From: Nannocystis bainbridge
Lineage (GTDB): Bacteria; Myxococcota_A; Polyangia; Nannocystales; Nannocystaceae
DNA length: 64,000 bases
Reading direction: 5' to 3'
Assembly (NCBI RefSeq): GCF_028368995.1
Contig: NZ_JAQNDL010000002.1
Coordinates: 1,856,001-1,920,000, forward strand
Part shown: positions 3,182 through 63,854 of the stretch, piece after piece
Position numbering within the stretch: position 1 is the first letter of the stretch
Layout: every line of letters starts with the position of its first letter
The notes under the pieces: model-generated
What the model was told of the DNA's origin: nothing
What the model saw: only the letters and a program-made list of their open reading frames with translations
Databases searched by the model: none
Made by a program: the position numbers and the translations under genes

Positions 3182-6100
3182 CTAGAACGGCTGCAAGAAC
3201 GTCAAATTCACCCCGACCCGCGGCAGCTGAAACTCCCCCGGCGCCACCCCTTGATACTCTGCCAGATAATCCGGCAGCACCTCATCGAGGCACGTCGAGC
3301 GTCGGCGGACCAGCGGCACCGCCACATCGAACCGGATGAACTGCGGCGTCACCCCCAGCAGCTGCAGGAAGGCCGTCACCCCGTAGCCGACCTGCCCGTA
3401 CCAGCTCTCCTTCCCGAACCACCCGCGCAGCGTATCGCACGGCGACACCGAAGCCGCCCCTGTGAACAGCGTCCCCCCGATCCCTCGCAGCCAGAACAGG
3501 TGGACCAGGTTCACATTGAAGTTCGACCAGAACATGTGCCGGTACTCGAGCTGCGCCAGCGCCACCCCGCGGCCGAACAGCTCGTTCCCCCCGTACGCTC
3601 CGAGCCCGTCGACCCCGCCCGCGCGCACCAGGCTGCGGAACTCCGGCCGGCCCATCAGCGGCACCATCATCGTCAGCTCGACCCGGCTCGCCAGCGTGTG
3701 TTGGTGTGCCAGCGGCCAGATGTGCACCCACGACGCCGACGCCGTCAGCCCGTGCCGGTGATCCGGCGCTGGCACCCCCGTGCGCAGCGTCTCCTGCGCG
3801 TACAGCCCGAACGCCAGCCGGTGCCCGCGATCGGGCCACAGGCTGAACTTGCGCGTATCGTCGATGATCGCCAGCGACTGGGCGAACCGCACCCCGCCGA
3901 CCCCGTCGAGCCCGCGCGCTGTCAGCGAGTGGACCTCGCCGAACATGCGCACCCGCCCGCGCCGGCGCCGGCGGTTGACCTTGTCGCCGAACCACACCGT
4001 CGCCCCGCCGCCGATCGCCGCCGCCGACTCGCGGTCGCGGTGCAGCTGCAGGTGGCCGATCGATCCGAGGTCGCGGCGCCGGCTCATCTCGAACAGCACC
4101 CGCCCTGACAGCGCCTGCAGCCGCGCCGCCGGCGTCTGCCCCGCCAGGAACTCCGACGCCGACACCTCGAAGCCGAACCCCGTGTAGACGAAGCGGAAGC
4201 TCGTCGGCGAGCGATTGTTGTAGAGCGGGTCGACGTTGCGCCGCGGCCCCTGCGGCTCCTCGAGCAGGCGCGTGCGCGGGTCGACCATCACCGAGCGCAG
4301 CTTGTGCTGCGTCTCGAGCGTGAACACATGGTCGATCGTACCTGACCCCGGGGACACCTCGTGATTGTTCCCCGACCCCAGCGACCCGTTCCACACCAGA
4401 TAGTGGCGCTGCCCGCCGCGCTCGGTCGCCAGCACCTGCACCGGCTCGACCGCCGCGTGCTCGCCTTCTCGCCGGATCGTGATCGTGTGCTGCCAGCGGC
4501 CGTCATCGAGCGGCACGCTGTCGACCTTCGCCACCGAGTAATCGACCGCCGGATAGGCCGCCAGCCACTGGTCGAAGAACCACCCGAGCGAGCGCCCGTA
4601 GGCCGCCTCGGCCGCGGCCACCGGGTCGCCGGTGCGGTCGCGCGCGACCCTGTCGTAGAACGCCTCGCGCTGGCCCGGCGTCAGCAGGTCGACCATCTTC
4701 TCGTGGATCCGGCGCCCGGTCGGCAGCGGGTGCGAGAAGAACAGCGGGTGCAGGCGCAGCGGCATGACGTCCTCGCTGCCGCGGAAGTAGCTCTGGGCGA
4801 ACGCCGCCTGGCCGGTGTAGAGGAAGTTGTCGACCATCGGCACGAACGTGATGCGCCGCAGGATGTCGCTGGCGAACTCGTCGCCCTGGGCCCGGCGGGC
4901 CCGCCACACGTCGAGCAGCGCCGTCGCCACCGCGTCGTAGAGCCACAGGTCGGTCGACGGATCGTGGCGACCCACATAGGCCCCGTACATGATCTCGTCG
5001 AGCATCGCCCGGGCCGCCGCCGCCTGATGAAAGCCCTGGAACCGCCGGCCCGGCGACACCTGGGCGAACTGATCGCTGACCAGCACCGCCGACGGGTGCG
5101 CCTGGGCGATCTCGGCCCGCAGCGGCCCCTGCACCACCGTCAGGCGGCTGTCGGGCGGCGGCTCCAGGCCGGCGATCGTGGCCACGTCGATCGCCTCGCG
5201 GGCGATCCGCAGCATGTGACCCGGCACGTCGCGATAAAGCTGCAACCAGCGCTCGTCGGGCACCTGATCGCCCGGGCGCCAGAACATGTGGAGCACCTCG
5301 ATCCGCACCCCGCGGTGGGTCTCGTGGGCCCGCTTCCACCGCGGGCCCCAGAACACCTCGGGGTACGCGACCTCGTCCGCCCCGACCGCCCCGCTGACGA
5401 CCACCACCTCGTCGCGCCCCAGCGCCTTGGCCTCGCTGGCCGTCGGGACATGTCCTGGAGACCATGTCGGAACCGCGGCGAACCGCGCGTCGACCGTCCA
5501 GCGCGCCGGCGTCACGATCCGCGCGTCGGGGTCGAGGCGCGCGCCGCCGCGGGCCGGCGCGCTCGGCAGCGGCGCCACCGCCCCGCTCAGGCTGCAGCGC
5601 CGGCGCGAGCAGCCGAACGGCCAGTAGCGGCGCGGCACCTCGACCGTGTACGCCAGCGTCAGCGTGTCTGTCCCTTCGGACATGGTCACCTCGACGTCGC
5701 GGCGCGCGTGGATCTGGCGGACCCGCGCCGCGCCGGTGTGCTCGCCGACCGTCAGCCGCCCGCGGTGGAACGGCCCGTCGAGGTAGTTCGCCTTGGCCAC
5801 CTCGTCGAGCTCGTTCGGCTCGCGCCCCAGCGCCTCGGCGAAGTTCAGCAGCACCAGCGTCTCGCCGGCGCGGGCCGGTCGGCTCAGCGTGTAGGTCGCC
5901 TCGCCGACGGCCGCCCCGCCTGCTCGCGGCACTCGCTTGCCGTCGGGCAGCCGCTCACCGCCTCGCACGACCTCGAGGCGGACCGCCACCGCCGTCACCG
6001 CGAGCGCGTCACTCGTCGGCGCCAGGTCCGTCGCCGGTCCGGTCGGCGGTTCCGCGTGAGCTTGCAGCGGCGAAAGGCCCGACGGATCTGAAGCGGCCTC

Positions 6101-6464: not shown

Positions 6465-8747
6465 ATGACGGCACAGGCTCGACCGCTGCCGGTCAGCGAG
6501 TGGCTCCGCGGCTTCACCCTCGGCCTCCTGGTCGCCGTCGGCTGCGGCCGCAGCGACTACCTCGGCCCCTGTGCCAGCGACGCCGACTGCGGCACCGGCT
6601 ACATCTGCGCCGCCGACGGCGTGTGCATCGAGGTCGGCGGCGAGTGCATCGTCGACGCCGACTGTCCTGACGGCGAGAAGTGCCTCAACTACGAGTGCGT
6701 CGGCCCGCAGGTGTGCGACGACAACCTCGAGTGCCCCCCGGGCACGATCTGCGTGATCCCCGAGGGCGAGGACATGGGCGTGTGCCAGGGCCCGCCGCCG
6801 ACCTGCCCGCCCTGCCCGGTCGGCACCGAGTGCGACGACAACGGCCAGTGCGTCCCGGTCGACCCGCCCGTCTGCCAAAACGACTTCGAGTGCCCCCAGG
6901 GCCAGATCTGCGTCGACGGCACCTGCACCGACCCCGGCGAGTGCGAGTTCGACTTCGAGTGCCCGTTCGAGCAGCAGTGCGTCGAGGGCCAGTGCGTCCC
7001 GGTCGGCTGCGACTTCTGCCAGTGCGAGAACGACTTCGACTGCCCGTTCGGCCAGGTCTGCGTCGACAACTTCTGCCAGCCGGAGTGCTTCAGCGACGAC
7101 CAGTGCCCGTTCGGCGAGGTCTGCCTCGACGGCTCCTGCGTCACCGGCGAGTGCACCATCGACCAGGACTGCCCGCCCAACGAGGTGTGCGAGAACGGCT
7201 TCTGCCAGGGCCAGTTCTGCTTCGACAGCACCGACTGCGACCCCGGCGAGCAGTGCATCGATTTCCAGTGCGTGCCCGGCGGCATGTGCCAGACCGACGC
7301 CGACTGCCCGCAAGGCACCGAGTGTGAGAACGGCGCCTGCGTCCCGATCGCCGGCTGCAACACCGACCTCGACTGCCCGCAGGGCCAGCAGTGCCAGGGC
7401 GGCGTGTGCATCCCCGGCCAGCTGTGCATGAACGACGCCGACTGCCCGCCCGGCGAGCTGTGCGTCGGCGGCGTCTGCTTCTTCCCGCCCGAGTGCATCC
7501 AGGACGCCGACTGCCCGGCAGGCCAGCTGTGCGTCGACGGCGACTGCCAGGATCCGCCGCCGCCGATCTGCATGTCGGACCTCGACTGTCCTCCGGGACA
7601 GGTCTGCAACCTGCAGACCCTGATGTGCGAGCTGTCGCCGCCGCCGCAGTGCATCGACAACGACGACTGCCCCGCCGGCCAGATCTGCGACGCCAACCAG
7701 CAGTGCGTCGACGCTCCGCCCCCGCAGTGCATCGACAACGACGACTGCCCCGCCGGCCAGATCTGCGACGCCAACCAGCAGTGCGTCCCCATCGTCCCCC
7801 AGTGCATCGACAACGACGACTGCCCGGTCGGCCAGATCTGCGACGCCAACCAGCAGTGCGTCCCCATCGTCCCCCAGTGCATCGACAACGACGACTGCCC
7901 CGTCGGCCAGATCTGCGACGCCAACCAGCAGTGCGTCCCCATCGTCCCCCAGTGCATCGACAACGACGACTGCCCCGTCGGCCAGATCTGCGACGCCAAC
8001 CAGCAGTGCGTCCCCATCGTCCCTCAGTGCATCGACAACGACGACTGCCCCGTCGGCCAGATCTGCGACGTCAACCAGCAGTGCGTCCCCATCGTCCCCC
8101 AGTGCATCGACAACGACGACTGCCCGGTCGGCCAGATCTGCGACGCCAACCAGCAGTGCGTCCCCATCGTCCCTCAGTGCATCGACAACGATGACTGCCC
8201 GGTCGGCCAGATCTGCGACGCCAACCAGCAGTGCGTCCCCATCGTCCCTCAGTGCATCGACAACGATGACTGCCCGGTCGGCCAGATCTGCGACGCCAAC
8301 CAGCAGTGCGTCCCCATCGTCCCTCAGTGCATCGACAACGACGACTGCCCGGTCGGCCAGATCTGCGACGCCAACCAGCAGTGCGTCGTCGCCCCGCCCC
8401 CGGTGTGCGTCGGCAACGACGACTGCGTCATCGACGAGGTCTGCATCGCCGGCACCTGCACCTTCATCGGGGACTGCCAGACCGACGTCCACTGCGCGAC
8501 CGGCCAGACCTGCGAGGCGGGCGTGTGCACCGGCCAGCCGCAGTGCACGACCAACGCCGAGTGCGCCGCCAACGAGTTCTGCCTGTTCGGCGAGTGCTTC
8601 GCGCCGAAGATGTGCGTGAAGAACAAGGACTGCGACACTGGCCAGGTCTGCGTGTTCGGCCTGTGCTCCGCCGGGGTCGAGTGCGCCGAGCATGCCGACT
8701 GCCCGGTCGGCCAGGCCTGCTTCGAGGGTCACTGCAACACCCTTTGA
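6465..8747 (+). CDS. Cys-rich repeat lipoprotein with many C-x2-D-x-D-C-P-x-G-x2-C-x3-4-C modules
   Basis: Lipobox LLVAVGC follows the ATG at 6465; the rest of the protein is tandem 4-Cys modules. Confidence 0.85.
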   Translation: MTAQARPLPVSEWLRGFTLGLLVAVGCGRSDYLGPCASDADCGTGYICAADGVCIEVGGECIVDADCPDGEKCLNYECVGPQVCDDNLECPPGTICVIPEGEDMGVCQGPPPTCPPCPVGTECDDNGQCVPVDPPVCQNDFECPQGQICVDGTCTDPGECEFDFECPFEQQCVEGQCVPVGCDFCQCENDFDCPFGQVCVDNFCQPECFSDDQCPFGEVCLDGSCVTGECTIDQDCPPNEVCENGFCQGQFCFDSTDCDPGEQCIDFQCVPGGMCQTDADCPQGTECENGACVPIAGCNTDLDCPQGQQCQGGVCIPGQLCMNDADCPPGELCVGGVCFFPPECIQDADCPAGQLCVDGDCQDPPPPICMSDLDCPPGQVCNLQTLMCELSPPPQCIDNDDCPAGQICDANQQCVDAPPPQCIDNDDCPAGQICDANQQCVPIVPQCIDNDDCPVGQICDANQQCVPIVPQCIDNDDCPVGQICDANQQCVPIVPQCIDNDDCPVGQICDANQQCVPIVPQCIDNDDCPVGQICDVNQQCVPIVPQCIDNDDCPVGQICDANQQCVPIVPQCIDNDDCPVGQICDANQQCVPIVPQCIDNDDCPVGQICDANQQCVPIVPQCIDNDDCPVGQICDANQQCVVAPPPVCVGNDDCVIDEVCIAGTCTFIGDCQTDVHCATGQTCEAGVCTGQPQCTTNAECAANEFCLFGECFAPKMCVKNKDCDTGQVCVFGLCSAGVECAEHADCPVGQACFEGHCNTL
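7645..8388 (+). repeat. Intragenic 75-bp near-identical tandem repeat, 10 copies
   Basis: PQCIDNDDCP(A/V)GQICDANQQCV(PIV) occurs 10 times; copies 2-10 have a 75-bp period (TGCATCGAC at 7728, 7803 ... 8328). Confidence 0.95.
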
Positions 8748-8798: not shown

Positions 8799-8965
8799 GT
8801 GACGTCGGCGCCCCCTGGCGCCCCCTGGCGCTCACGCGCGCGGCCTGACGCGCGAGCCGCCCGATGCGCTTCGTTCCGCGCGCGCGCCCGTTCGTGCCGC
8901 CGACGCGGTCGTTCGTGCCGTGGCCCGCGTCGCGCGGCGCGGCGCGGGGTCTCATCGCCGTGCCC

Positions 8966-12273: not shown

Positions 12274-12364
12274 CGACATGCCCGCGAAGACATGTCCATC
12301 GCGCAATGTCGCAACAGACATGTCCCCGATGACATGCCCCTCGAGACATGCCCCCGGGGACACC
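12274..12364. repeat. 14-bp-period palindrome array (array 2)
   Basis: Junctions at 12277 CATG, 12291 CATG, 12305 AATG, 12319 CATG, 12333 CATG, 12347 CATG and 12361 CACC; lies between convergent genes. Confidence 0.9.
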
Positions 12365-16016: not shown

Positions 16017-17181
<1,165 letters not shown>

Positions 17182-17189
<8 letters not shown>

Positions 17190-19247: not shown

Positions 19248-20720
19248 ATGTGGACCCCGCCCGCCAAGATCCGCCACGCGATCCCGCCGGCGCGCTGGCC
19301 GAGCGCCGCGGAGGCGGCCGCCAGCCGGTGGTTTTCGCCGATCGACGTCGGCCCCTGTCGGCTGCACGCGCGCACCTGGGTCCCGGCGATGGTGCCGTGG
19401 CGGGCCTCCGACGACGGCCGCGTCACGCCCGACGTGATCGCCTGGTACGCGCGCTTCGCCGCCGGCGAGCCGGGCGCGCTGGTGGTCGAGGCCACGGGGA
19501 TCCGCGACGTCCCGAGCGGCCCCTTGCTGCGGATCGGCGACGACCGCTTCGTCGCCGGCCTGGCCGACCTGGTCGCCGCCGTGCGCGAGGCCAGCGGCGG
19601 CCGCACGCGCCTGTTCATCCAGCTGATCGATTTCCTCGCGGTCAAGCGCCGCCCCGCGCCCGACAAGTTCTTCGCCCGCTTCTTGCGCGTCGACGCCGGC
19701 CACCGCGAGCGCCTCGCCGCCGCCCTCGCCGACGACCGCTGGCTGGCCGCGCCCGAGGCCGAGCTGCGCGCGTTTCTCCTGGCTGCCGAGACAGGTCTCT
19801 TGGAGCAGGTCCTCACGGACAGGGAGCGACGCGAGCTCGAGTTCGGCTACCGCGAGCTGGTGACCGACCTCGACCTGCCGCACGTGCGCGACCTGCCGCG
19901 GGTGCTGCCCGAGCTGTTCGCCGCGGCGGCTGCGCGGGCCGAGGCCGCCGGGTTCGACGGCGTCGAGCTGCACTACGCCCACGCCTACACGATGGCGAGC
20001 TTCCTCTCGCGCACCAACACCCGCGCTGACGGCTACGGCGGCACGCTCGCGGGTCGCGCTCGCCTGCCGCTCGAGGTGCTCGCGGCCGTGCGCGCGCGCG
20101 TCGGCGCCGGCACAGCGGTCGGCTGCCGCATGCTCGGCGACGAGGTCATCGCCGGCGGCAGCGACCTCGCCGACGCGGTCCAGTTCGCCCGCGACTTCGC
20201 GGCCGCCGGCATGGATTTCGTGAGCGTGTCCAAGGGCGGCAAGTTCGACGACGCCCACCCGCCCAAGGTCGGCGAGGCCGTCTACCCCTACACCGGCCCG
20301 AGCGGCTACGAGTGCATGCCCACGGTCCACAGCGACGCGCGCGGCCCGTTCGCGCGCAACGTCCCGCTCGCCGCCGCCATCCGGGCCGCCATCCGGGCCG
20401 ACGGCCGGATCACCCCCGTGGTCGCTGCCGGCGGGATCCACGAGTTCGGCCAGGCCGAGGCGATCCTCGCCGCCGGCGACGCCGACATCGTCGCCGCCGC
20501 CCGCCAGAGCCTCGCCGACCCCGACTGGTTTTTAAAGGTTCGCGAGGGCCGCGGCGCCGAGGTCCGCCGCTGCAAGTTCACCAACTACTGCGAGGCGCTC
20601 GACACCCAGCACAAGCAGGTCACCTGCCAGCTGTGGGACCGCGTCGAGCTCGACGAGCCCGGCCTGACCCGCTCGCACGACGGCAAGCGCCGGCTGGTCG
20701 CCCCGACCTGGCGGCGCTGA
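19248..20720 (+). CDS. NADH:flavin oxidoreductase (old yellow enzyme family)
   Basis: VVEATG, AGFDGVELHYAHAY, TNTRADGYGG and ARQSLADPDW, with a C-terminal Cys cluster. Confidence 0.9.
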   Translation: MWTPPAKIRHAIPPARWPSAAEAAASRWFSPIDVGPCRLHARTWVPAMVPWRASDDGRVTPDVIAWYARFAAGEPGALVVEATGIRDVPSGPLLRIGDDRFVAGLADLVAAVREASGGRTRLFIQLIDFLAVKRRPAPDKFFARFLRVDAGHRERLAAALADDRWLAAPEAELRAFLLAAETGLLEQVLTDRERRELEFGYRELVTDLDLPHVRDLPRVLPELFAAAAARAEAAGFDGVELHYAHAYTMASFLSRTNTRADGYGGTLAGRARLPLEVLAAVRARVGAGTAVGCRMLGDEVIAGGSDLADAVQFARDFAAAGMDFVSVSKGGKFDDAHPPKVGEAVYPYTGPSGYECMPTVHSDARGPFARNVPLAAAIRAAIRADGRITPVVAAGGIHEFGQAEAILAAGDADIVAAARQSLADPDWFLKVREGRGAEVRRCKFTNYCEALDTQHKQVTCQLWDRVELDEPGLTRSHDGKRRLVAPTWRR

Positions 20721-20944
20721 CCTGGCGCAGCGGACATGTCGCAAAGGACATTCCTGGAGCGCCAGCCCGGGCTGCCCCGCACGCCGCGAGGACCGGCTGG
20801 TCGCCCCGACGTGGCGGCGATGACCTGGCGCATCGGACATGCCGCAAAGGACATGCCCTGGAGCGCATGTCCGGTTCGACATGTCGTGAAGGACATCGAA
20901 CTTCGCAGGTCCGTGCTCTCGGAGGCTTCCTCGCGGACATGTCC
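20704..20944. repeat. 14-bp-period palindrome arrays (array 3) inside a tandem duplication of about 105-110 bp
   Basis: Junctions at 20707, 20721, 20735 and 20749, then 20810, 20824, 20838, 20852, 20866, 20880 and 20894. An extra GGACATGTCC sits at 20935-20944. Confidence 0.85.
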
Positions 20945-26459: not shown

Positions 26460-26490
26460 ACGTCTCACCTGTCCTTGCGGACAGCTTCGC

Positions 26491-29348: not shown

Positions 29349-29361
29349 GCGCGGCGCCGTC

Positions 29362-30214: not shown

Positions 30215-30318
30215 GCCGCACCTCCCGAGGACAGCGATCGTATGACCGTCCTTCGCGCCGCGGGCAAGCCTCGCCGCGAGCGGGCCCGCGCTCAGAGTCA
30301 CGTCGGGGGCCGTCCTAG

Positions 30319-40479: not shown

Positions 40480-40522
40480 GCGCGAACGAACAGGGTGCAA
40501 GGGCAAGGTGCTCCGGGACATG

Positions 40523-44438: not shown

Positions 44439-46391
<1,953 letters not shown>

Positions 46392-48120: not shown

Positions 48121-49233
48121 GTGAAGGTCAAGGCTGCAGTCGCTCACCGGGCCGGCGCGCCCCTCTCGATCGAGACCGTCGATCTCGAAGGACCACGCGC
48201 CGGCGAAGTTTTGCTCGAGATCAAGGCGACGGGGGTGTGCCACACCGACGCCTTCACCCTGTCCGGCAAGGACCCGGAGGGCCTGTTCCCGACCATCCTC
48301 GGCCACGAAGGCGCCGGCGTGGTGGTCGACGTCGGCCCCGGCGTGACCTCCGTGAAGAAGGGCGATCACGCGATCCCGCTCTACACGCCCGAGTGTCGCC
48401 AGTGCAAGTTCTGCCTGTCCGAAAGGACCAATCTGTGTCAGGCGATCCGGTCGACCCAGGGCCAGGGCCTGATGCCCGACGGCACCAGCCGGTTCTCGAT
48501 CGGCGGCAAGCCCCTGTTCCACTACATGGGCTGCTCGACGTTCGCCAACTACACGGTGCTGCCCGAGATCGCGGTCGCCAAGATCCGCGAGGACGCCCCG
48601 TTCGACAAGGTCTGCTACATCGGCTGCGGCGTGACGACCGGCGTCGGCGCGGTCATCAACACCGCCAAGGTCCGCCCGGGTGACAACGTCGTGGTGTTCG
48701 GCCTCGGCGGCATCGGCCTCAACGTGATCCAGGGCGCGCGTCTGGCCGGCGCCAACATGATCGTCGGCGTCGACCTCAACCCCGCGCGCAAGGACATCGC
48801 CGAGCGGTTCGGCATGACCCACTTCGTCGACGCCAGCCAGGTGCCCGGCGGCGAGCTCGTGGCCCACATCGTCAACCTCACCGGCGGCGGCGCCGACTTC
48901 TCGTTCGAGTGCGTCGGCAACGTCCACGTCATGCGCCAGGCGCTCGAGTGCTGTCACAAGGGCTGGGGCACCTCGGTGATCATCGGCGTGGCGGGCGCGG
49001 GCGAAGAGATCAGCACGCGGCCGTTCCAGCTGGTCACCGGGCGGGTGTGGAAGGGCTCGGCGTTCGGCGGGGCCAAGGGCCGGCGCGACGTGCCGAAGAT
49101 CGTCGACTGGTACATGGACAAGAAGATCAACATCGACGACCTCATCACCCACGTGCTCCCGGTCGAGAAGATCAACGACGCCTTCGACCTGATGCACCAC
49201 GGTGACTCGATCCGCACCGTCGTCACCTTCTGA
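48121..49233 (+). CDS. frmA: S-(hydroxymethyl)glutathione dehydrogenase / class III alcohol dehydrogenase
   Basis: [30 protein letters not shown] and [22 protein letters not shown]. Confidence 0.97.
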
Positions 49234-49289: not shown

Positions 49290-49447
49290 CGCGTTTCGAG
49301 CGGACGTCCGACAGCGGTCCGCCCGCCCTGCACCGCCGCCGCGCGCGGGGGTGATCCGGCGCGCGGAGGTGGGTGGGCCCGCAAGTCTCACGGGCTCGCC
49401 GCTGCGGGTGAAACTCGCGGGCTGCTACACTGCGCGCGCTCGTGCCC

Positions 49448-52400
49448 ATGACGCCGCAGATCTTCGGCCGCTACGCGCTGATCGAGCAGATCGGCGAGGG
49501 AGGCATGGCCGACGTGTTCCTCGCCGAGGCCGGCGTCGCCGAGGGCCTGAAGAAGCGCGTCGTCATCAAGAAGATCCGCAGCGACGTCGCCGACCAGCCC
49601 GAGTTCATGCGGATGTTCGTCGCCGAGGCGGAGGTCGCCCTCGGCCTCAACCACGCCAACATCGTCCAGGTGTTCGACTTCGGCCGCGTCGGCGGGGCCT
49701 TTTACCTCGCCATGGAGTTGGTCGAGGGCGTCGACTTGATGCGCATGGTCCGGCTGGTCGGCCAGCGCGGCGAGCGGGTGCCGATCGTCATCGCCGCGTA
49801 CATCGCCCACCAGGTCGCGGCCGGCCTCGCCTACGCGCACGCCAAGCGCGACGACTTCGGCCGCCCGCTGGCGATCGTCCACCGCGACATCAGCCCGCAC
49901 AACATCATGCTGAGCCTCGCCGGCACGGTGAAGATCCTCGACTTCGGCATCGCTCGCACCGCCGCCAAGGCGCGCCGCGACGGCGGCGCCGAGGACAGCA
50001 CGATCCAGGGCAAGATCGCGTACATGTCGCCCGAGCAGGCCAACGGCTGGCCGCTCGACGCCCGCTCCGACATCTACTCGCTCGGCGTGGTCCTCTACGA
50101 GCTGCTGACCGGCGAGCTGGTGTTCCGCGACGCCGACCGCATGGCCGCGCTCGAGCAGGTCCGCACGCGCCCGCTGCCGCCGCTGCGCCGCGTCGCGCCC
50201 GAGGTGCCCGAGGTGCTGGCCGCGGTGGTCGACCGCGCCCTCGCGCGCGAGCCGGCCGAGCGGTGGGACAGCGCGCGCGCCATGCAGAGCGCGCTGGCGG
50301 CGTTTCTTCACCGCGCCGATCCGGTCGTCGACGACGAGGTGCTGTCGGCCTTCGTCGCCGCGCGCGTGCCAGAGCAACTGTACGACCGCGGCTCGGGCGA
50401 CGCCGAGGTCACGCGCGAGCTCGAGGGCTCGCAGTCGCAGCTGCACGCGCCGCCGCGGCCCGAGGTGCGGCGCGTCGTGCTGCTCAAGGCCGCGCTGGCG
50501 CCGGCGCTCGGCGTCGAGGATCCGCTCGAGCCGGCCCGGTTCTTCGCGCTGGCCCGCGACATCGCCTACAAGCGCGACGCCCAGGTGAGCGAGCTCGGGG
50601 CGCGCGGCCTCTTGCTCGTGTTCGGCGCCGTGCTCGATCCCGGCGACGTCGACGAGGCGGCGCTGCGGGCCGCGCTGGCCCTGCGCGAGGCGGCCAGCGA
50701 GGCGGCGCCCGGGCACCAGATCGGCGTGGTCCTGGCCGCCGCGCCCTTGCCGATCCGACATGTCCCTTCGGGCATGCCCGCGGTCGAGGTCGGCCACGAT
50801 CTGCGGCGTCACCTGCAGACGATGGCCGACGGCGTGCTCGACGGGCCGGTGCTGGTCGCCGGCGATCTGGCGGCGCGGCTGGCCGGGTCGTGGCAGTTCG
50901 GGCCGCCGCGGGCGATCGAGGTCGTGCGCCCGCGTCGCGCCGCCGACCTCACCGGCGGCGTGCTGCCGCCGTGGGCCAGCGCGCTCGCGCAGGCGGTGCC
51001 GCTGCTCGGGCCGGTGGTCGCGCCGCGGCTCGTGACCGTCGGCGGGCGCCAGCCGCTGTACGGCCGCGAGCTCGAGCTCAAGCTGCTGCGCGACAGCTTC
51101 GCCGAGGCGATCCGGGCCCGGGTCGCGCGCACGGTGCTGGTCGTCGGCGGCCCGGGGATCGGCAAGCGCGCCCTGCTCGACCGCTTCCTCGCCGCCCTGC
51201 CCCGCGGCGGCTGCGTGGTCCTGCGCGCGCGCGGCCAGTGGCGCCGCCGCAACGTCCCGTTCGGGGTGTTCCAGGAGATGCTGCGGCAGTTCCTCGACGC
51301 CGGCCCGGAGACCACCACGGCCGACATCGAGTCGCGCCTGGCCAGCGAGCGGGTGGTCGGCGCCGGCGAGCTGGCGCAGGCGCTCGCGCGCGCGCTCGGC
51401 GTGTCCCCCGGGACAGGTCTCAACGTACATGTCCGAACGGACAGCGACGGCGCCGGCGATCCGCGGTCGCGGCGCGAGCGGCTGTGGCGACCGATCCGCC
51501 GCCTGATCCGCGCCCTCGCCCAGCGCCGGCCGGTGCTGATGGTGGTCGAGGACCTCCACTTCGTCGACGCTCACAGCCTCGGCCTGCTGCACGAGTGGCT
51601 GCAGGAGCCGCACAGCCTGCCGCTCATGGGCCTCGCCACCGCCCGCCCCGGCCCGCGCGCCGACGAGCTGCGGGCGCTGCCGGGCGTGCACGCGATCGAG
51701 CTGCGCGAGCTCGACGACCACGCCCGCCGCGAGCTGGTGGTCCGCCGCTTCGACGACCCCGCCGAGGCCGAGGAGCTGGCCGCGGCGATCGTCGCGCGCA
51801 CCGGCGGCAACCCGCTGTTCATCGAGGAGACCCTGGCCGAGCTGCTGCGCCGCGGCGTGGTCGGCCCCGGCGACGACGGTCGGATGTGGCGCGTGCACCA
51901 GCGCGGCGCTCGCATCGAGGTCCCGCCGAGCGTCGAGGACGCGCTGCTGGCCCGCCTCGACGCGCTCGACCCCGAGGCGCGCGCGCTGATCGACGGCGCG
52001 GCCGTGCTTGGCCTGACCTTTCGGACAGGTGAACTCGCGGCCCTGCTGCAGCGCCCGCAGGCCGAGCTCGTCGAACCTCTGGCCGCGCTGGTCGACGCCG
52101 GCCTGCTCGAGCGCCCGCCGCTGCCGGCCGGCACGCCCGCGGCGGCCCGGTTCGCCACCCTCAGCCTGCACGAGGTCGCCCGCGGCAACCTGTCCTCGGG
52201 GACATGCGAGGGCATGCACGCGCGGGCCGCCGAGCTCAAGGCGGCCCGCGCCGACTACCAGCCCGGGCGCGACGACGGCCCGATCGCCGATCACTGGGCC
52301 CAGGCGCGCCGGCCCGAGGCGGCGATCGAGCCGGCCCTGCGCGCGGCCCGGTTCGCCCGCGACGTCGCCGGCAACGTCGAGGCCTACTACTACCTGTCGC

Positions 52401-53704
52401 TGGCGCTGCGCTCGATGCGGCCCGAGGCCGATCCGCGGGCCTGGGACGCGCTGCGCGAGCGCGAGGCGATCCTGGCCGCGTGGGGCCGCCGGCGGGCCCA
52501 GGGCGCCGATCTTCGGGCGCTCTTGCGGCTCGCGCTCGGCACCAACGAGCGCGAGGTGTTCGCGCTCGGCCGCCTGCTCCGCTTCTACCTCGACTGTGGG
52601 CGCATCCAGCGGGCCCAACAATTGTTCCCGCGCCTGGCCCGTCAGACCGAGGCCCTGCCCGACGCCGACCCGCACCGCGGCCTCGTCGGCGAGCTCGGCT
52701 CGGCGCTGATGCTGGCGCGCGACCGGCCCGAGGAGGCCGAGCGCCTCGCCGCCGCCGGCCTGGCCCACTGCCCGCCCGAGGCCGCCGCCCAGCGCTGCCG
52801 CCTCCACGCCGCGTTGGGCCGGGCTCAGCTCGCGCAGGGTCGGCTGGCCGAGGCGGTGGTCAACTTCGAGGCCACGCTGCACCTGGCCCAAAAGACAGGT
52901 CTCCTGCGGCTCGAGGGCGAGGCGCTCAACAGCCTCGGCGAGGTCGCCGGCCGCGGCACCCGCTATCAGGAGGCGGTCGACTACTTCCGCGCCGCGCTGC
53001 AGGTCGACCGCGACCTCGGCGACCGGGCGGCGACCGGCACCAAGCTGGCCAACCTCGGCATCGTCTACACCGCGATCGGCCTCTATCGCCGCGCCGAACG
53101 CTACCTCCGCAAGGCGCTCGAGCTGCACGAGGCGATCGGTCACCCCGGCCTGCTGCTCGAGGTCGTCGTCAACCTCGGCGAGGTCTCGGCCGAGCACGGC
53201 GACGTCCAGGCCGCGCGCGCGCTGCTGCTGCACGCCGCCGACATGGCCGCCGCCCGCGGCGACGCCCGCACCGAGCTGCGGGCCCGCGCCCGCCTGGCCC
53301 GCGCCCTCGTCGACGGCAGCCCGCCCGACCTCGAAGAGGCCCGGGTCCTCGCCGAAGCCGTGCTGGCCCGCGCCCGCGGCCTCGGCCTGCGCACCGCCAC
53401 CTGTCGCGCGCTGCATGTCCTTTCGCGCCTGTCCGAACAGACAGGCGACCTCACGACCGCGCGCGCGCTCGAGGAGGAGGCGGTCGAGCTGGTCCGCGCC
53501 GGCGCGGCCCCGATCGACGGGGTGCTTTCGATCCACCACCTCGGCCACCTGCTGGCCGAGGTCCGCCCGGCCGAGTCGGCGGCCCTGCTCGCCGACGCCG
53601 CTGCTGCCGTGCGCGCCCGCCTCGAGGGCCTGCGCGACGAGGACCTGCGCCGCGGCTACCTGGCCCAGGCGAAGGTCCAGGAGATCCTCGGCGAGGCCGA
53701 GTGA
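49448..53704 (+). CDS. Ser/Thr kinase + degenerate cyclase-like domain + AAA/STAND ATPase + TPR protein
   Basis: GEGGMA, HRDISPHN, DFG, YMSPEQ; LYGRELEL, GGPGIGK, VVEDLH, TGGNPLF; C-terminal TPR-like repeats. Confidence 0.92.
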   Translation: MTPQIFGRYALIEQIGEGGMADVFLAEAGVAEGLKKRVVIKKIRSDVADQPEFMRMFVAEAEVALGLNHANIVQVFDFGRVGGAFYLAMELVEGVDLMRMVRLVGQRGERVPIVIAAYIAHQVAAGLAYAHAKRDDFGRPLAIVHRDISPHNIMLSLAGTVKILDFGIARTAAKARRDGGAEDSTIQGKIAYMSPEQANGWPLDARSDIYSLGVVLYELLTGELVFRDADRMAALEQVRTRPLPPLRRVAPEVPEVLAAVVDRALAREPAERWDSARAMQSALAAFLHRADPVVDDEVLSAFVAARVPEQLYDRGSGDAEVTRELEGSQSQLHAPPRPEVRRVVLLKAALAPALGVEDPLEPARFFALARDIAYKRDAQVSELGARGLLLVFGAVLDPGDVDEAALRAALALREAASEAAPGHQIGVVLAAAPLPIRHVPSGMPAVEVGHDLRRHLQTMADGVLDGPVLVAGDLAARLAGSWQFGPPRAIEVVRPRRAADLTGGVLPPWASALAQAVPLLGPVVAPRLVTVGGRQPLYGRELELKLLRDSFAEAIRARVARTVLVVGGPGIGKRALLDRFLAALPRGGCVVLRARGQWRRRNVPFGVFQEMLRQFLDAGPETTTADIESRLASERVVGAGELAQALARALGVSPGTGLNVHVRTDSDGAGDPRSRRERLWRPIRRLIRALAQRRPVLMVVEDLHFVDAHSLGLLHEWLQEPHSLPLMGLATARPGPRADELRALPGVHAIELRELDDHARRELVVRRFDDPAEAEELAAAIVARTGGNPLFIEETLAELLRRGVVGPGDDGRMWRVHQRGARIEVPPSVEDALLARLDALDPEARALIDGAAVLGLTFRTGELAALLQRPQAELVEPLAALVDAGLLERPPLPAGTPAAARFATLSLHEVARGNLSSGTCEGMHARAAELKAARADYQPGRDDGPIADHWAQARRPEAAIEPALRAARFARDVAGNVEAYYYLSLALRSMRPEADPRAWDALREREAILAAWGRRRAQGADLRALLRLALGTNEREVFALGRLLRFYLDCGRIQRAQQLFPRLARQTEALPDADPHRGLVGELGSALMLARDRPEEAERLAAAGLAHCPPEAAAQRCRLHAALGRAQLAQGRLAEAVVNFEATLHLAQKTGLLRLEGEALNSLGEVAGRGTRYQEAVDYFRAALQVDRDLGDRAATGTKLANLGIVYTAIGLYRRAERYLRKALELHEAIGHPGLLLEVVVNLGEVSAEHGDVQAARALLLHAADMAAARGDARTELRARARLARALVDGSPPDLEEARVLAEAVLARARGLGLRTATCRALHVLSRLSEQTGDLTTARALEEEAVELVRAGAAPIDGVLSIHHLGHLLAEVRPAESAALLADAAAAVRARLEGLRDEDLRRGYLAQAKVQEILGEAE

Positions 53705-54843: not shown

Positions 54844-57800
54844 ATGGTTATTCACATAAATAAGCCCGAGCGGATCGTGATCGTCGGTGGTGGCATGGCG
54901 GCCCTCACCACCGCCTTCGAGTTGACCTCGCGTCCCGACTGGCGCGAGCGCTACGACATCACCGTCTATCAGATGGGCCATCGGCTCGGCGGCAAGGGGG
55001 CCAGCGGGCGCGATCAGGAGCGCTTCGATCGCATCGAGGAGCACGGCCTCCACCTCTTCTACGGCTTCTACGACAACGCCTTCTCGGTCCTGCGCCGCTG
55101 TTACGACGAGCTCGCGCGGCCCGCCGGCGCCCCGCTGCGGACCCTCGAGGACGCGTTTCATCCCCACTCGCTGGTCGTGTTCGAGGAGCAGCGCGGCGGG
55201 CAGTGGCACCACCAGCCGCTGCTGTTCCCGCGCAATCACGAGCGCCCGGGCCTCGGCGCCGCCACCCCGACCCCGGCGGCGCTGATCCCCAAGATGCTCA
55301 CCTTCCTGCTCGATCTTTTCGACGAGCAACCACTGCTCAAGAACCCCGCCGCCACTCGCAGCGATCGCGCCGCGCTGCGGCTGCTGCGGCGCGGCGTCTC
55401 CGGCCTGCTCGGCGAGCTCGGCGAGTTCCTCCAGCGCCCCGGCGACGGCCTCGTGGTCGTGCGGCGCGAGGCCTTGCTCGGCCGCCTGCTCGCGTTCTCG
55501 CGCTGGACCTGGCGCCTGTGCGCGCCGCTGCTCGCTCGCCGGCCCGACCTGCGCGTCGCCTGGACCGCCGTCGACGTCACCCTGGCGATGATCCGCGGCA
55601 TGATCGCCGACCGCCTGGTCGAAGAGACAGCCGTCGACTGGCTCCGCCTCGACCACGAGGACTTCCGCGCCTGGCTGCGCCGCCACGGCGCCAGCGACGA
55701 GGCCGTCGCCGCTTCCACCGTCGCGGGCGTCTACGCCGGGGCCTACATGGCCGACCAGGAGCTCGGCGCCGGCACGGCCCTGCACTGGACGCTGCGCATG
55801 CTCTACACCTACCGCGGCGCGCTCTTCTACAAGATGCAGGCCGGCATGGGCGACGTCGTGTTCGCGCCGCTGTACCTGGTGCTGCGCGCTTGCGGCGTCA
55901 AGTTCCGCTTCTTCCACCGCGCCGACGCGCTGCGCCTGTCGGCCGATCGCAGCCGGATCGACGAGGTCGTGTTCGGGCGCCAGGTCGCCGTCAAGGGCGG
56001 CCGCGACTACGAGCCGCTCTACGACGTGAAGGGCCTGCCGTGCTGGCCGAGCGAGCCGCTCTACGACCAGCTCGAGCACGGCGACGCGCTGGCGCAGAGC
56101 GGCGAGAACCTCGAGGACTGGGGCACGCAGTGGCCCGACTCGCAGGAACCGCTGGTGCTCGCGGCCGGCCGCGATTTCGACCGCGTGCTGCTCGGCATCG
56201 GCCTCGGCGCGGTGCCGGCCCTGTGCGCCGAGATGATCGCCGACCCGAACAACCCGCGCTTCGCCGCGATGGTGCGCGCCGTCAAGACCACCCACACCGC
56301 GTCGGCGCAGCTGTGGTTCCGCGGCGACCTGGCCTCGACCGGCTGGCGCTTGCCGCCGCCGGTGATGATCCCCCACGCCATGCCGCTCGACACCTGGGCC
56401 GACATGAGCCACCTCCTGCCGCGCGAGAGCTTTCCGGGACATGTCCCTACGGCCAGCTGCGCCTACCTCACCGCGGCGATGGACGACGACGAGACGCCGC
56501 CGGTCCGCCGCGAGGACGCCGAAGGTTATTGCGCACGCCAGACCGCGCGGATCCGGACCCTGCTCGCGCAGCACCTGCGCACCAACAGCGCGCACCTGTG
56601 GCCGGCCGCGCAGAAGCCCGGCGGCGGCCTCGATCACCGCTGCCTCGTCACCACCGACGCCGGCGCCGATCCGCTCGACTGGCAGCACGTCAGCCCGTGC
56701 CTCAATCCGTCCGACCGCTACGTGCGATCGATCCGCGGCAGCACCCTCCATCGCCTCGACGCCGGCGCCTCCGGCTACGACAACCTGGTCCTGTGCGGCG
56801 ACTGGACCCTCAACCCGATGAACCTCGGCTGCGTCGAGGGCGCGACGATGTCGGGCATTCGCGCGGCCCAGGTCATCAGCGGCGAGGCCATCGCCCTGCA
56901 CGACGACTGGCTGGCCGCGCGCCACCCGGCCCTGCGCACGCCCGCGCGCGAGCGGCCGCGCTACATCCAGCGGGCGCTCAACGAGTCGACCTCGCCGCCG
57001 TACGAGGCGCGGGCCACCGCGATGTACGCCTCGGTCCTCGCCGCCGAACCCGAGCGCCTCGCCGACCTGTGCCAGCGTCACCTCGGCCTCAACCCCGAGC
57101 GCTGCTACCTCCCGCTCGGCCCCTCGGTGGTGTTCTACGCCCAGCACAACCACGCGCTGTCGGCCGTCGACGCGCCCGGCGTGGTCCCCGAGCGCGACTT
57201 CGGCTTCCTCGTCCCCGTCGCCGTGTGCGAGCGCCGGGCCGGCAAGCTGACGCCCGTCGGCGTCGCCGTCTACATGCCGTACCTCTGGGTCGACCTCGGC
57301 GCGGCGCTGCTCGGTGGGCGCGAGGTCCTCGGCTTCCCCAAAGGCCAGGCGACGCTCGGCTTCCCCGGCGCGCCCACCGGCGCCGTCGAGCTGCGCGTCG
57401 ATGCCTGGATGCCGCCCGCGAGCGGCCGCGGCGACGCCTGGCGCGAGGAGCGGCTGATCGACGCCCGCCTCGACGACAGCGCCAGGAGCCGCGTCCGCTC
57501 GCTCGCCGACGCCCTGCGCTCCGGCTTCGACCCCTCCTGGCTGGCCAGCCGCGGCGTCGACCTGGCCGGCCAGCTCTGCCTGCTGCGCGCCATCACCATG
57601 ACCCTTCGGACAGGTGGCCTGCGTATGGTGTTCCTCAAGCAGTACCGCGACGCCGCCGCCTGCGATCGCGCCTGCTACCAGGCGATCGTCGAGGCCCCGT
57701 GCACCCGCGCCGGCACCCCGCGCGTGGCGGCCCAGCTGCCCGGGGCGCTGCAGCTCCAGATCTTGCGCCGCTCCGGCCTGCTGGCGGAGCTCGGCCTGCG

Positions 57801-57906
57801 CACCAGCGGGGGCGACGCGGAGCGCGCCCGGGTGCCGGCGCTGGCGACGTTCTACACCGAGCTCGACTTCACGATCGGCGCGGCCGACGTGGTGTGGGCG
57901 GCCTGA
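54844..57906 (+). CDS. FAD/NAD(P)-binding oxidoreductase fused to an acetoacetate decarboxylase-like domain
   Basis: IVGGGMAA, RLGGKGASGR, IEEHGLHLFYGFY, LCGDWT and GCVEGATMSG; C-terminal PYLWVD..GGREVLGFPK and FLKQYRD. Confidence 0.85.
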   Translation: MVIHINKPERIVIVGGGMAALTTAFELTSRPDWRERYDITVYQMGHRLGGKGASGRDQERFDRIEEHGLHLFYGFYDNAFSVLRRCYDELARPAGAPLRTLEDAFHPHSLVVFEEQRGGQWHHQPLLFPRNHERPGLGAATPTPAALIPKMLTFLLDLFDEQPLLKNPAATRSDRAALRLLRRGVSGLLGELGEFLQRPGDGLVVVRREALLGRLLAFSRWTWRLCAPLLARRPDLRVAWTAVDVTLAMIRGMIADRLVEETAVDWLRLDHEDFRAWLRRHGASDEAVAASTVAGVYAGAYMADQELGAGTALHWTLRMLYTYRGALFYKMQAGMGDVVFAPLYLVLRACGVKFRFFHRADALRLSADRSRIDEVVFGRQVAVKGGRDYEPLYDVKGLPCWPSEPLYDQLEHGDALAQSGENLEDWGTQWPDSQEPLVLAAGRDFDRVLLGIGLGAVPALCAEMIADPNNPRFAAMVRAVKTTHTASAQLWFRGDLASTGWRLPPPVMIPHAMPLDTWADMSHLLPRESFPGHVPTASCAYLTAAMDDDETPPVRREDAEGYCARQTARIRTLLAQHLRTNSAHLWPAAQKPGGGLDHRCLVTTDAGADPLDWQHVSPCLNPSDRYVRSIRGSTLHRLDAGASGYDNLVLCGDWTLNPMNLGCVEGATMSGIRAAQVISGEAIALHDDWLAARHPALRTPARERPRYIQRALNESTSPPYEARATAMYASVLAAEPERLADLCQRHLGLNPERCYLPLGPSVVFYAQHNHALSAVDAPGVVPERDFGFLVPVAVCERRAGKLTPVGVAVYMPYLWVDLGAALLGGREVLGFPKGQATLGFPGAPTGAVELRVDAWMPPASGRGDAWREERLIDARLDDSARSRVRSLADALRSGFDPSWLASRGVDLAGQLCLLRAITMTLRTGGLRMVFLKQYRDAAACDRACYQAIVEAPCTRAGTPRVAAQLPGALQLQILRRSGLLAELGLRTSGGDAERARVPALATFYTELDFTIGAADVVWAA

Positions 57907-57917: not shown

Positions 57918-58058
57918 GGGCATGCCCTTCACGACATGTCCCCGTGCCCCCTGCCTGGAGCTAGTTCTACCGCCCGCCCCACATGGCACAAGGGGCATGT
58001 CCTCTCGAACATGCCCCTTCCAACAGGCCCTTTCAGACATGCCCTTTCGGACCTGTCC
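57918..58058. repeat. 14-bp-period palindrome array (array 6)
   Basis: CATG at 57921 and 57935; then 57982 CATG, 57996 CATG, 58010 CATG, 58024 CAGG, 58038 CATG and 58052 CCTG. Confidence 0.9.
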
Positions 58059-58064: not shown

Positions 58065-59795
<1,731 letters not shown>

Positions 59796-62300: not shown

Positions 62301-63854
62301 ATGACCTCCGGGAGCCCTGTTTCGGTCGTGATCGGCCACACGATTGCCCTGCGCGACGTGGACGCTGTCGCCCGCCGCGGCGCCGCCGTCTCGCTCGCCG
62401 CCGAGGCGCGGGACGAGCTGCGACAGACGCGGGATCACCTCGAGCGAGCGCTGGCCGCCGGCGCGATCATCTACGGCGTCAACACCGGCTTCGGCGCCCT
62501 GTCCGACGCGAAGATCGCCCCCGACGAGCTCGGGATCTTGCAGCAGAACCTGCTGCGCAGCCACGCGGCCGGGGTCGGCCCGGCGTTCTCCGCCGACGTC
62601 GTGCGCGCCCTCTTGCTGCTGCGCGCCCACACCCTCGCGCTCGGGGCCAGCGGCGTGTCGCCCGGCGTGCCCGAGTTCCTGCTGCAGATGCTGGCCCGCG
62701 ATGTCCTCCCGGTCGTCCCGTGCCAGGGCAGCGTCGGCGCCAGCGGTGACCTGGCCCCGCTGGCCCACCTCGCCCTGGTCGCCATCGGCGAGGGGTTCGC
62801 CTGGTCCGAAGGACAGATCATCTCCGGCGCCGACGCCCTCGCGCGCGCCGGCCTGACCCCGCTGCGCCTCGGCCCCAAGGAGGGCCTGAGCCTCATCAAC
62901 GGCACCCAGGTCACCACCGCCGTCGGCGCGCTCGCGCTGTGCGACGCCGCCGAGCTGATCGCCGCCGCCGACATCCTCGGCAGCCTCAGCCTCGACGCGC
63001 TGCTCGGCACCGTCACCGCCACCGACCCGCGGATCCACGCCGGCAAGCCACACGTCGGCCAGCGCGAGAGCGCCGCCGTCTCGCGCGCCCTGCTCGTCGA
63101 CTCCCCGCTCCGCGCCTCGCACAGCGACTGCGGCGAGGTCCAGGACGCCTACGCCCTCCGCTGCATGCCGCAGGTCCACGGGGCCGCGCGCGACGCCCTC
63201 GCCTACGTCGCCGGCGCCGTGCAGGTCGAGCTCAACAGCTTCACCGACAACCCGCTGGTGCTGGCCCGCGCGGACGGCGGCTTCGACGTCCTCAGCGGCG
63301 GCAACTTCCACGCCGGCACCGTCGCCCTCCCGCTCGATCACATGACCGCCGCGCTCACCACCCTCGCCACCATCAGCGAGCGCCGCACCGATCGCATGCT
63401 CAACCCCGCGACCTCGCGCGGCCTCCCGGCCTTCCTGGCCGAAAGGCCAGGTGTCGAGAGCGGCCTGATGATGGCCCACGTCACCGCCTCGGCGCTCGCC
63501 AGCGAGTGCAAGTCGCTCAGCTTCCCCGCCTCCGTCGACACCATCCCGACCTCGGCCGGCAAGGAGGACCACGTCAGCATGGGCCCGATCGCCGCCCGCA
63601 AGCTGCGCAGCGTGGTCGACAACCTCGCCCGCGTGCTCGCCATCGAGGCCATCGCCGCCGCCCGCGGCCTCGACCTGCGCGGGCACCCGACCAGCGCCCC
63701 GCTCCAGCGCGTCCACGCGGCCATCCGCGCCCACGTCCCGCCGTGGACCGGCGACCGCAGCCCGGGCGGCGACACCGAGGCCCTCGCCGCCGCGATCCTG
63801 CGCGGCGAGCTGCGCCGCGCCGCCGAGGTCGCCTCCCCGCTCGATCGCGGCTGA
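62301..63854 (+). CDS. hutH: Histidine ammonia-lyase
   Basis: YGVNTGFG, NLLRSH, GSVGASGDLAPLAHL (MIO), KEGLSLING, QDAYALRC.PQVHG and EDHVSMG. Confidence 0.93.
   Translation: MTSGSPVSVVIGHTIALRDVDAVARRGAAVSLAAEARDELRQTRDHLERALAAGAIIYGVNTGFGALSDAKIAPDELGILQQNLLRSHAAGVGPAFSADVVRALLLLRAHTLALGASGVSPGVPEFLLQMLARDVLPVVPCQGSVGASGDLAPLAHLALVAIGEGFAWSEGQIISGADALARAGLTPLRLGPKEGLSLINGTQVTTAVGALALCDAAELIAAADILGSLSLDALLGTVTATDPRIHAGKPHVGQRESAAVSRALLVDSPLRASHSDCGEVQDAYALRCMPQVHGAARDALAYVAGAVQVELNSFTDNPLVLARADGGFDVLSGGNFHAGTVALPLDHMTAALTTLATISERRTDRMLNPATSRGLPAFLAERPGVESGLMMAHVTASALASECKSLSFPASVDTIPTSAGKEDHVSMGPIAARKLRSVVDNLARVLAIEAIAAARGLDLRGHPTSAPLQRVHAAIRAHVPPWTGDRSPGGDTEALAAAILRGELRRAAEVASPLDRG

Follow-up and report, generated by a model that had tools for sequence, protein, structure and literature searches.

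A clade-specific palindromic DNA word in 14-bp register within genes and 3' spacers of Nannocystis

Introduction

DNA uptake sequences and the cyanobacterial palindrome HIP1 are the closest described analogues of the element reported here, HIP1 being the closest. Uptake sequences known to us are oriented, non-palindromic words that keep no fixed register. Operator half-sites that abut one another and are bound cooperatively are found in the MetJ metboxes and the omega-repressor heptads, at a few promoters or centromeres. For HIP1, one study reports a 15- to 300-fold excess, takes conservation as selection, and finds no support for a role at the peptide, RNA, or gene-regulation level (PMC5861425). 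Here, we analyze a stretch of 64,000 nucleotides from Nannocystis bainbridge (contig NZ_JAQNDL010000002.1, positions 1,856,001 to 1,920,000; hereafter, the window), in which an initial annotation made from the sequence alone had pointed to phased 14-bp junctions inside many unrelated genes. The junctions are real, and those with CATG, CAGG, or CCTG are the two ends of a palindromic unit, TGTCC-N4-GGACA. This word and its copies across the genome are the subject of the present work.

Results

The source genome (G000; 11.05 Mb in five contigs, 71.5% G+C, with the window at C3:1856001-1920000) contains 1987 perfect copies of the unit, compared with 3 of a reversed-pattern control. Although A+T-richer than the genome, the word is the commonest among all 5-N4-5 palindromes (1987 of 30,718), and its enrichment is several hundred-fold. 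Units were scored by the number of the 10 fixed bases (TGTCC plus GGACA) that agree, a perfect unit having 10/10, and 6245 units reach at least 9/10 genome-wide, approximately one per 1.8 kb. As a separate observation on palindromes in this genome, several are strongly avoided (observed/expected ratios of 0.26 for AAGCTT, 0.30 for TCGCGA, 0.36 for AACGTT, 0.37 for TACGTA, and 0.20 for CTAG), which may reflect restriction systems.

Adjoining units stand in a strict 14-bp register and produce the GGACATGTCC junction, which is self-complementary and adds a second dyad wherever units abut. The consensus over the 1987 perfect units extends two to three bases outward, R-C-(A/C)-TGTCC-YYRR-GGACA-(T/G)-G-Y, so that the half-site is GGACA(T/G)G; half-sites follow one another at spacings of 4 and 0, their orientation alternating. 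The loop is free in sequence, none being common to the units, and rigid in length, with genome-wide counts of 8, 16, 1987, 5, and 3 for N2, N3, N4, N5, and N6, respectively. The same rigidity is seen between units, since GGACA.{9}GGACA occurs 639 times in the genome versus 5 and 16 times for gaps of 8 and 10, and site-to-site distances of 14, 28, 42, and 56 bp occur 485, 274, 165, and 58 times. The longest phased chains have eight units. A further peak at 36 bp comes from a few longer tandem repeats with an embedded unit. Such repeats, with periods of 36, 46 to 49, and 68 bp and one unit per period, are located in G000 at C2:1217435-1217800, C1:2717297-2717440, C2:2067142-2067290, C2:1484073-1484727, and C3:25781-26398; part of them lie in spacers called divergent. 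The repeats could represent RNA arrays or repeat proteins that lack an annotation.

Genes were predicted with our own codon-likelihood caller and not taken from a curated annotation (8062 genes, 84% of the genome); in the window, Pfam matches confirm purK, the miaB-like gene, acs, dprA, lon, the OYE-family gene, the zinc alcohol dehydrogenase (ADH) gene, an aromatic-lyase gene, the Omp85-like gene, and two kinase genes. Genome-wide, coding sequence holds 800 perfect units compared with 19 to 34 in 10 synonymous-codon shuffles, 312 copies of GGACATGTCC compared with 25 to 46, and 374 phased half-site pairs compared with 10 to 18. A similar test of the 56,313 bp of called coding sequence in the window, with 100 synonymous-codon shuffles, gave 8 perfect units against a mean of 0.03, 27 units of at least 9/10 against a mean of 2.1 (maximum, 6), and 19 phased pairs against a mean of 2.7 (maximum, 7). 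At 8/10, the 67 matches compare with 42.5 in the shuffles, and about two-thirds of them are background. The 800 coding units use the three frames 64, 278, and 458 times, a frame being used more often the fewer A/T-ending codons it requires. They lie in 597 genes and specify 379 distinct peptides, and 715 of them are in high-scoring gene calls. Codons ending in A or T, rare in this genome, make up 2819 of 9728 third positions (29.0%) in the arms of units of at least 9/10 genome-wide versus 186,530 of 3,087,726 (6.0%) elsewhere.

These counts bear out the proposal of the initial annotation that the DNA motif itself, and not a peptide, is favored through codon choice in the manner of uptake sequences or HIP1: shuffled sequences stay far below the observed numbers, and all three frames are used for hundreds of peptides. 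The clustering of rare codons at the sites, claimed there from a few examples, is general, and its estimate of roughly one site per 2 kb agrees with the 27 units of at least 9/10 in 56.3 kb of window coding sequence, i.e., about one per 2.1 kb (0.28 per kb in coding sequence genome-wide). The individual sites fared less uniformly. By hand tally, they amount to 27 places, 22 of which have a unit of at least 9/10, and the other five (purK 16829, 32690, 44631, 52882, and 62800) reach only 8/10. Most were correctly placed in coding sequence, except 21823/21837 and 40463-40519, which overlap a start codon and extend into the spacer. The run at 33466-33522 does lie in a real coding region, with the second codon position more conserved than the first and the first more than the third on both sides.

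Codon alignments with five congeners of approximately 90% identity and with more distant relatives at 50 to 88% protein identity indicate that the word is written in place into coding sequence, by synonymous and tolerated nonsynonymous substitutions and without indels. No indel is present at any site shown in seven genes (purK, miaB, lon, acs, ADH, kinase, and gene 3182-5998). In ADH the writing is purely synonymous, as the peptide CLSERTNLC is identical in relatives G021 and G002, whose codons CTC TCT/TCG GAG CGC correspond to CTG TCC GAA AGG in the window's clade. The miaB-like gene keeps the peptide LGTG.PG while GGC ACC GGC .. GGC (G002 and G009) becomes GGG ACA GGT .. GGA, and lon keeps LTRGTG while CGT GGT ACC GGC (G011) becomes CGA GGG ACA GGT. 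In the kinase gene, CAC GTG CTC .. CTC GCC GAG becomes CAT GTC CTT .. CTG TCC GAA. Amino acids can also change: in purK, nonsynonymous Y-to-W and E-to-G replacements shift the stretch towards the word, with no indel in 10 orthologues, and the A/T-rich degenerate version found there is common to the genus. The earlier statement that reading frames are intact and no insertion is evident thus holds, as does its expectation for orthologues of purK, miaB, lon, acs, and ADH that the word would arise by substitution; the contribution of nonsynonymous changes is an addition to it. An in-frame palindromic insertion of the RPE or MITE kind was rejected because of the lack of indels at the sites shown in the seven genes. 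As an observation apart, the ADH orthologue of G007 has a 1-base deletion beside the unit (window position 48444), either a frameshift or an assembly error, and was dropped from the codon alignment.

Once written, the word is held nearly constant among congeners, although about 60% of their other A/T third positions differ. Across the 27 coding units of at least 9/10 in each of the five congeners, A/T third positions are identical in 109 of 110 cases in the arms versus 1378 of 3739 (37%) elsewhere, and G/C third positions in 372 of 385 versus 87%. Repeat counting of relatives is avoided in a one-to-one comparison of a 480-kb stretch of G001 with 502 kb of G000 contig C3, in which 328.7 kb aligned and 125 coding units could be followed. 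Here, 123 of 129 A/T third positions are identical in the arms compared with 2156 of 5272 (41%) elsewhere, and 322 of 329 G/C third positions compared with 87.6%. In G001, 102 of the 125 units still score at least 9/10, 17 score 8/10, 1 scores lower, and 5 have an indel. In the loops, conservation falls below that of the average coding position, with a third-position identity of 73 to 74%. The six units of the kinase gene are common to three to five of the five near congeners, and one unit is present only in G000.

The word is not confined to genes. Of the perfect units, 1170 are intergenic, 800 coding, and 17 lie across a gene boundary, corresponding to 0.66 per kb of intergenic and 0.086 per kb of coding sequence. 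The main home of the word is the 3' ends of genes, above all between convergent genes: convergent spacers carry 1.54 perfect units per kb, tandem spacers 0.66, and divergent spacers 0.21, and a unit of at least 9/10 is found in 57% of 1281 convergent, 27% of 3515 tandem, and 16% of 1452 divergent spacers. Intergenic units pile up within 80 bp of stop codons. Among the spacers listed for the window, 7 of 8 convergent and 3 of 15 tandem ones hold a unit of at least 8/10, compared with 0 of 8 divergent ones, and in the five near congeners the matching convergent spacers have units in most mappable cases and the divergent ones have none. Coding units, for their part, are evenly distributed along genes, with fewer in the last fifth. 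Since the spread along genes is even and the divergent, promoter-bearing spacers are the poorest, the sites do not behave as an operator set, as the initial annotation had argued from mid-gene positions. The operator set of a transcription-factor regulon was accordingly rejected (0.21 per kb in divergent spacers, the lowest among spacers, and no concentration upstream of genes). Two start codons of the window lie within a CATG junction (21823-21825 and 40477-40479); genome-wide, 11 perfect units stop just short of the first base of a called start codon and 11 start just past it.

Whether the word is kept as sequence or as structure can be judged from its variants. Compensatory pairs in the arms show no excess: for pair 2/11, C-G occurs 146 times compared with 381 and 314 single changes and mismatches such as G-A (335). 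Mismatching arm pairs are as common as paired ones, and single-arm variants far outnumber compensatory doubles. Flanking pairs fit the marginals, with 358 Watson-Crick pairs at coding sites and 358 expected. Among 9/10 units, the sense strand shows no preference for variants compatible with G.U pairing (tandem spacers, 318 to 274; coding sequence, 297 to 371), and approximately half of all 9/10 variants are transversion-type mismatches. The unit is not followed by a T run, five coding sites show no stronger folding than shuffles (z scores of -1.85 to +1.09), and no Rfam family matches within the window. Loop asymmetry is weak and inconsistent, as GCAA, GTGA, and GAAA are favored on the sense strand and GCGA and GAGA are not. 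An RNA-structure reading was rejected on the lack of covariation, of a sense-strand G.U bias, and of a T run, on the poor folding seen at coding sites, and on this weak loop asymmetry. A further idea, that loops are inverted through hairpin template switching, was rejected as well: of 36 diverged loops, only 1 is an exact reverse complement, compared with 0.37 on average under the null.

The motif is confined to Nannocystis and two sister genera. All 11 genomes of the genus carry it (114 to 2090 units per genome), as do the two sister genera with 87 and 161 units, compared with 0 to 7 units (controls, 0 to 10) in 18 other genomes of the same family and class. A scan for the double junction through the genomes of 185,579 species returned 78 stretches, 75 of them labeled Nannocystis, Nannocystaceae, or Myxococcales. 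Within the source genome, site density rises with G+C content (r = 0.48), from 0.5 to 3.8 sites in 20-kb windows below 69% G+C to 12.6 to 14.8 in those above 71%. Some 100-kb bins stand apart, for example G000 C1 at about 1.1 to 1.3 Mb, with 10 sites of at least 9/10 compared with a mean of 56, and six 20-kb windows have no site versus 0.007 expected under a Poisson distribution. The low-density bins are probably acquired islands. Among viral contigs, the double junction was found only in L147 (IMG/VR; positions 8916-8948), a contig with 66% G+C and three units of at least 9/10 in 9 kb, which may be a phage of a related host.

The coding sites of the window illustrate the range of the word (strand of each gene in brackets). 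Gene 3182-5998(-) has a 9/10 unit at 4343-4356, whose TGTCC arm is intact in all five congeners and which has no indel relative to G011; two phased units (9/10 and 8/10) with a perfect GGACATGTCC junction at 5437-5464, where G011 has codons ending in G or C and again no indel; and a perfect unit at 5669-5682, taken from the unit list and the congener alignment. The Cys-rich repeat gene 6465-8747(+) has a perfect unit at 7587-7600, for which the alignment is the least reliable because the gene is repetitive. This gene, with DUF7107 and Dickkopf-like matches, also includes a 75-bp tandem repeat at 7647-8387 (9.8 copies, 97% identity) that looks like a recently expanded 25-residue module. In purK (16017-17189(-)), the substituted stretch is a degenerate phased pair (8/10 and 7/10) at 16831-16858. 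Two phased units (9/10 and 10/10) lie over the start codon of gene 20962-21825(-) at 21811-21838, its ATG being within the CATG junction. The Omp85-like gene 24770-26236(+) has 9/10 units at 24856-24869 (unit list and Pfam) and at 26121-26134, the latter perfect in all five congeners. In the miaB-like gene 27954-29348(+), the synonymous writing on LGTG.PG gives two phased units (9/10 and 8/10) at 29266-29293, and in lon (33980-36379(+)) a 9/10 unit at 35871-35884 lies on the LTRGTG kept in G011. Between the miaB-like gene and the convergent gene that follows, 1.2 kb (29349-30573) have no called gene and a single 8/10 unit, versus one to three units of at least 9/10 in two congeners.

Further along, the membrane-protein gene 31902-33920(-) has four phased units (8, 8, 7, and 9 of 10) at 33468-33523. 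The tetratricopeptide-repeat gene 36631-40479(-) has a perfect unit at 39675-39688 and two phased units (10/10 and 8/10) at 39799-39826, and a phased run at 40465-40520 extends from its first codons into a 43-bp spacer and is mostly noncoding. Single 9/10 units supported by the unit list and Pfam occur in the OYE-family gene 19248-20720(+) at 19808-19821, in acs (44439-46391(-)) at 45275-45288, where the alignment adds to the support, in dprA (46491-47303(-)) at 46988-47001, and in the oxidoreductase gene 54844-57906(+) at 56442-56455; the last gene has another 9/10 unit at 57599-57612. The purely synonymous case in the zinc ADH gene 48211-49233(+), with its identical peptide, is the 9/10 unit at 48416-48429. 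The large kinase gene 49442-53704(+) carries 9/10 units at 50761-50774 and 52014-52027; at 51402-51443, a pair of perfect units at a distance of 28 bp that encloses a 7/10 unit, the loops varying among congeners while the arms stay; a perfect unit at 52191-52204, which reads TGGCC in the five congeners (9/10); and, at 53430-53443, a 9/10 unit that is the last of a phased run from 53400. The second kinase gene, 58065-59774(-), has a perfect unit at 58547-58560 (unit list and Pfam) and a 9/10 unit at 59732-59745.

In the convergent spacers of the window, arrays or units are present at 2394-2477, at 12279-12362 (five units of at least 8/10, at 12279 and 12307-12349, two of them of at least 9/10), at 20723-20939, after lon at 36403-36472 (-47.5 kcal/mol, z = -5.75), and at 57923-58053, and a perfect unit at 26470-26483 lies in a spacer that measures 655 to 1509 bp and has four to six units in three of the four mappable congeners. 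Phased units also follow the aromatic-lyase gene at the window's end (63957-63998). In a 785-bp convergent spacer, a tandem repeat of 116 to 121 bp (2461-2787; 2.8 copies, 85 to 88% matches) has a near-perfect unit at the beginning of each copy (ACATGTCCTATCCGACA), and no alignment of this repeat to the five congeners was found.

Discussion

Free loop sequence combined with a rigid loop length fits a fixed-spacing reader better than a hairpin, and the lack of arm covariation, the rigid N4, and the weak folding of coding sites suggest a sequence in double-stranded DNA read by an oligomeric protein rather than RNA hairpins. We therefore give somewhat less than an even chance to the explanation that this clade-specific, hyper-abundant DNA word is read on double-stranded DNA by a predicted sequence-specific, oligomerizing protein. 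Such a protein would bind each palindrome as a dimer and could line up unit after unit, and the many sites per genome would be kept because its job depends on site density. As candidate jobs, it could mark or insulate transcription units at their 3' ends, manage the nucleoid or supercoils, or mark resident DNA. The coding copies would then be the price-limited share of the demand for sites, placed where codons and amino acids can pay. In its fullest and more doubtful form, this would be a genome-wide protein-DNA lattice code of Nannocystis and its nearest genera, in which a putative protein reads alternating GGACA(T/G)G half-sites, polymerizes in a 14-bp register (three dimers per four helical turns), and marks transcription-unit ends and resident DNA, with selection for sites strong enough, across hundreds of unrelated genes, to outweigh codon bias and even the choice of amino acid.

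Several observations weigh against the reader-protein explanation. The reader itself is wholly postulated, and a search for it via arrays in divergent spacers turned up only longer repeats of 46 to 49 and 68 bp. The gene calls rest on our own caller, and the congeners are related, so the five-congener comparisons are not independent. At greater depth, G009 lacks all six kinase units and carries a single one of its own at another place in the gene, and the miaB unit is absent from G002, G009, and G011; as sites are not kept at depth, they point to no site-specific function. Positional conservation would also be expected from a persistent drive, such as uptake with recombination or biased repair, and not from selection alone, and the pattern may reflect selection or a recombination or uptake drive alike. 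In the spacers, an RNA hairpin or terminator role of the intergenic copies is consistent with their bias to 3' ends, the arrays fold strongly (-47.5 kcal/mol and z = -5.75 for 36395-36480, with z about -2 for three others), and the convergent-spacer arrays differ in copy number and length among congeners (e.g., 254 bp versus 655 to 1509 bp), resembling an expanding repeat.

The alternatives account for parts of this pattern. A DNA uptake sequence, preferred by a competence receptor and spread by uptake and homologous replacement as a molecular drive through genes and spacers alike, as in Neisseria and Pasteurellaceae, would explain thousands of copies in coding sequence and spacers with a frame use that tracks codon cost, the limitation to one clade, the inverted pairs enriched at 3' ends, the depletion of low-G+C, probably acquired DNA, and sites common to close species that are turned over at depth. 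The genome also has ComEC, a ComEA-like (HHH_3) gene, and dprA, but competence genes are present in 10 to 11 of 14 control genomes as well and therefore say little. A 98-kb sample of the sister genus G011 showed no variant "dialect," and the strict 14-bp phasing, which holds even in coding pairs arisen without indels, is foreign to known uptake words, which are oriented and unphased; we consider this explanation unlikely, if worth serious attention. An improbable alternative is a REP/BIME-like hairpin of 3' untranslated regions that acts as a terminator or mRNA stabilizer on RNA or single-stranded DNA and spills over into genes. The gradient from convergent to tandem to divergent spacers (1.54, 0.66, and 0.21 per kb), the crowding within 80 bp of stop codons, the strong folding of arrays, and their variable length in congeners all suit it. 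It does not account for 800 of 1987 perfect units inside coding sequence and conserved there, nor for a loop rigid in length and free in sequence, and it is further opposed by the missing covariation, sense-strand G.U bias, and T run, by coding sites that fold no better than shuffles, and by the negative searches for Rfam families in the window and for the Y1 (RAYT) transposase in the genome.

Alternatively, the word may have come about neutrally, as the by-product of a sequence-specific bias in mutation, repair, or methylation that keeps turning near-matches into further copies. This agrees with the origin of sites by point substitution, and HIP1 has been linked to methyltransferases (PMC4390886). 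We judge it very improbable, since the specificity extends over 10 to 14 bases with two dyads and amino-acid changes were accepted to make the word in purK. The inner CATG alone is only 1.24-fold over expectation genome-wide, compared with several hundred-fold for the word, and a general CATG enrichment or methylation drive was dropped for this reason. For HIP1, moreover, conservation both inside open reading frames (ORFs) and between them was taken as selection rather than replenishment (PMC5861425). Chance, codon usage, or a conserved peptide describes most of the 8/10 matches (67 versus 42.5 in shuffles) and is otherwise hardly conceivable, being already refuted for matches of at least 9/10, because shuffles fall far short at 9/10 and 10/10, three frames and 379 peptides are involved, and the reversed control has 3 copies against 1987.

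The word adds a second information layer to genes, and a predicted reader of the DNA would restrict synonymous sites, as well as some amino acids, across hundreds of genes of one genus. Codon-usage and dN/dS models are biased at word sites in these genomes, and codon optimization or recoding of Nannocystis genes would erase them. Site density separates resident from acquired DNA, and the clade boundary, with the genus and two sister genera on one side and six other genera of the family on the other, offers a clean phyletic filter. The rigid two-dyad geometry makes a sharp bait for the predicted reader protein and a route into the purpose of palindromes such as HIP1. If the lattice code proposed above were true, it would amount to a chromosome-organizing or self-marking system unlike any described in the literature searched. 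That literature, which comprised articles and no supplementary files, yielded no description of the motif.

It is important to consider how the word relates to other repeated or phased sequences. REP, BIME, and REPIN elements are likewise palindromic and numerous, prefer 3' ends and convergent spacers, and form clusters of variable size. Unlike them, 40% of the perfect units in G000 are inside genes, and since no sequence is common to the loops, the units do not represent copies of a single element. Profile PF01797 of the Y1 (RAYT) transposase had 0 matches in six frames of G000 (a genome 90.5% complete) and was positive in 6 of 14 control genomes. Membership in the REP/REPIN-RAYT group was rejected on these three grounds, the unit share in coding sequence, the unrelated loops, and the lack of a Y1 match. 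The MetJ and omega-repressor arrays resemble the word in short abutting or alternating half-sites in fixed register, which suggests a protein binding unit next to unit; the Nannocystis word differs in having thousands of sites, in occurring inside genes, and in being poorest in promoter-bearing spacers.

The likeness is greater to the uptake sequences of the DUS and USS type, the subject of PMC2397512, PMC3630211, and PMC2346458. Such sequences are clade-specific, occur in thousands of copies in genes and spacers, often form inverted pairs after genes, and occupy coding sequence at spots that can bear the cost. In contrast to them, the Nannocystis word is a palindrome on a 14-bp lattice. With HIP1 (GCGATCGC), it shares the character of a short, hugely over-represented palindrome that lies within and between ORFs and is conserved between genomes (PMC5861425). 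The sequence GCGATCGC and the cyanobacterial lineage are not those of the Nannocystis word, which is bipartite (5-N4-5), gains a second dyad where units meet, builds phased arrays as long as eight units, and is strongly biased to 3' ends. What is new relative to these systems is the bipartite two-dyad word together with its strict 14-bp register, its phased arrays, and its strong bias to 3' ends.

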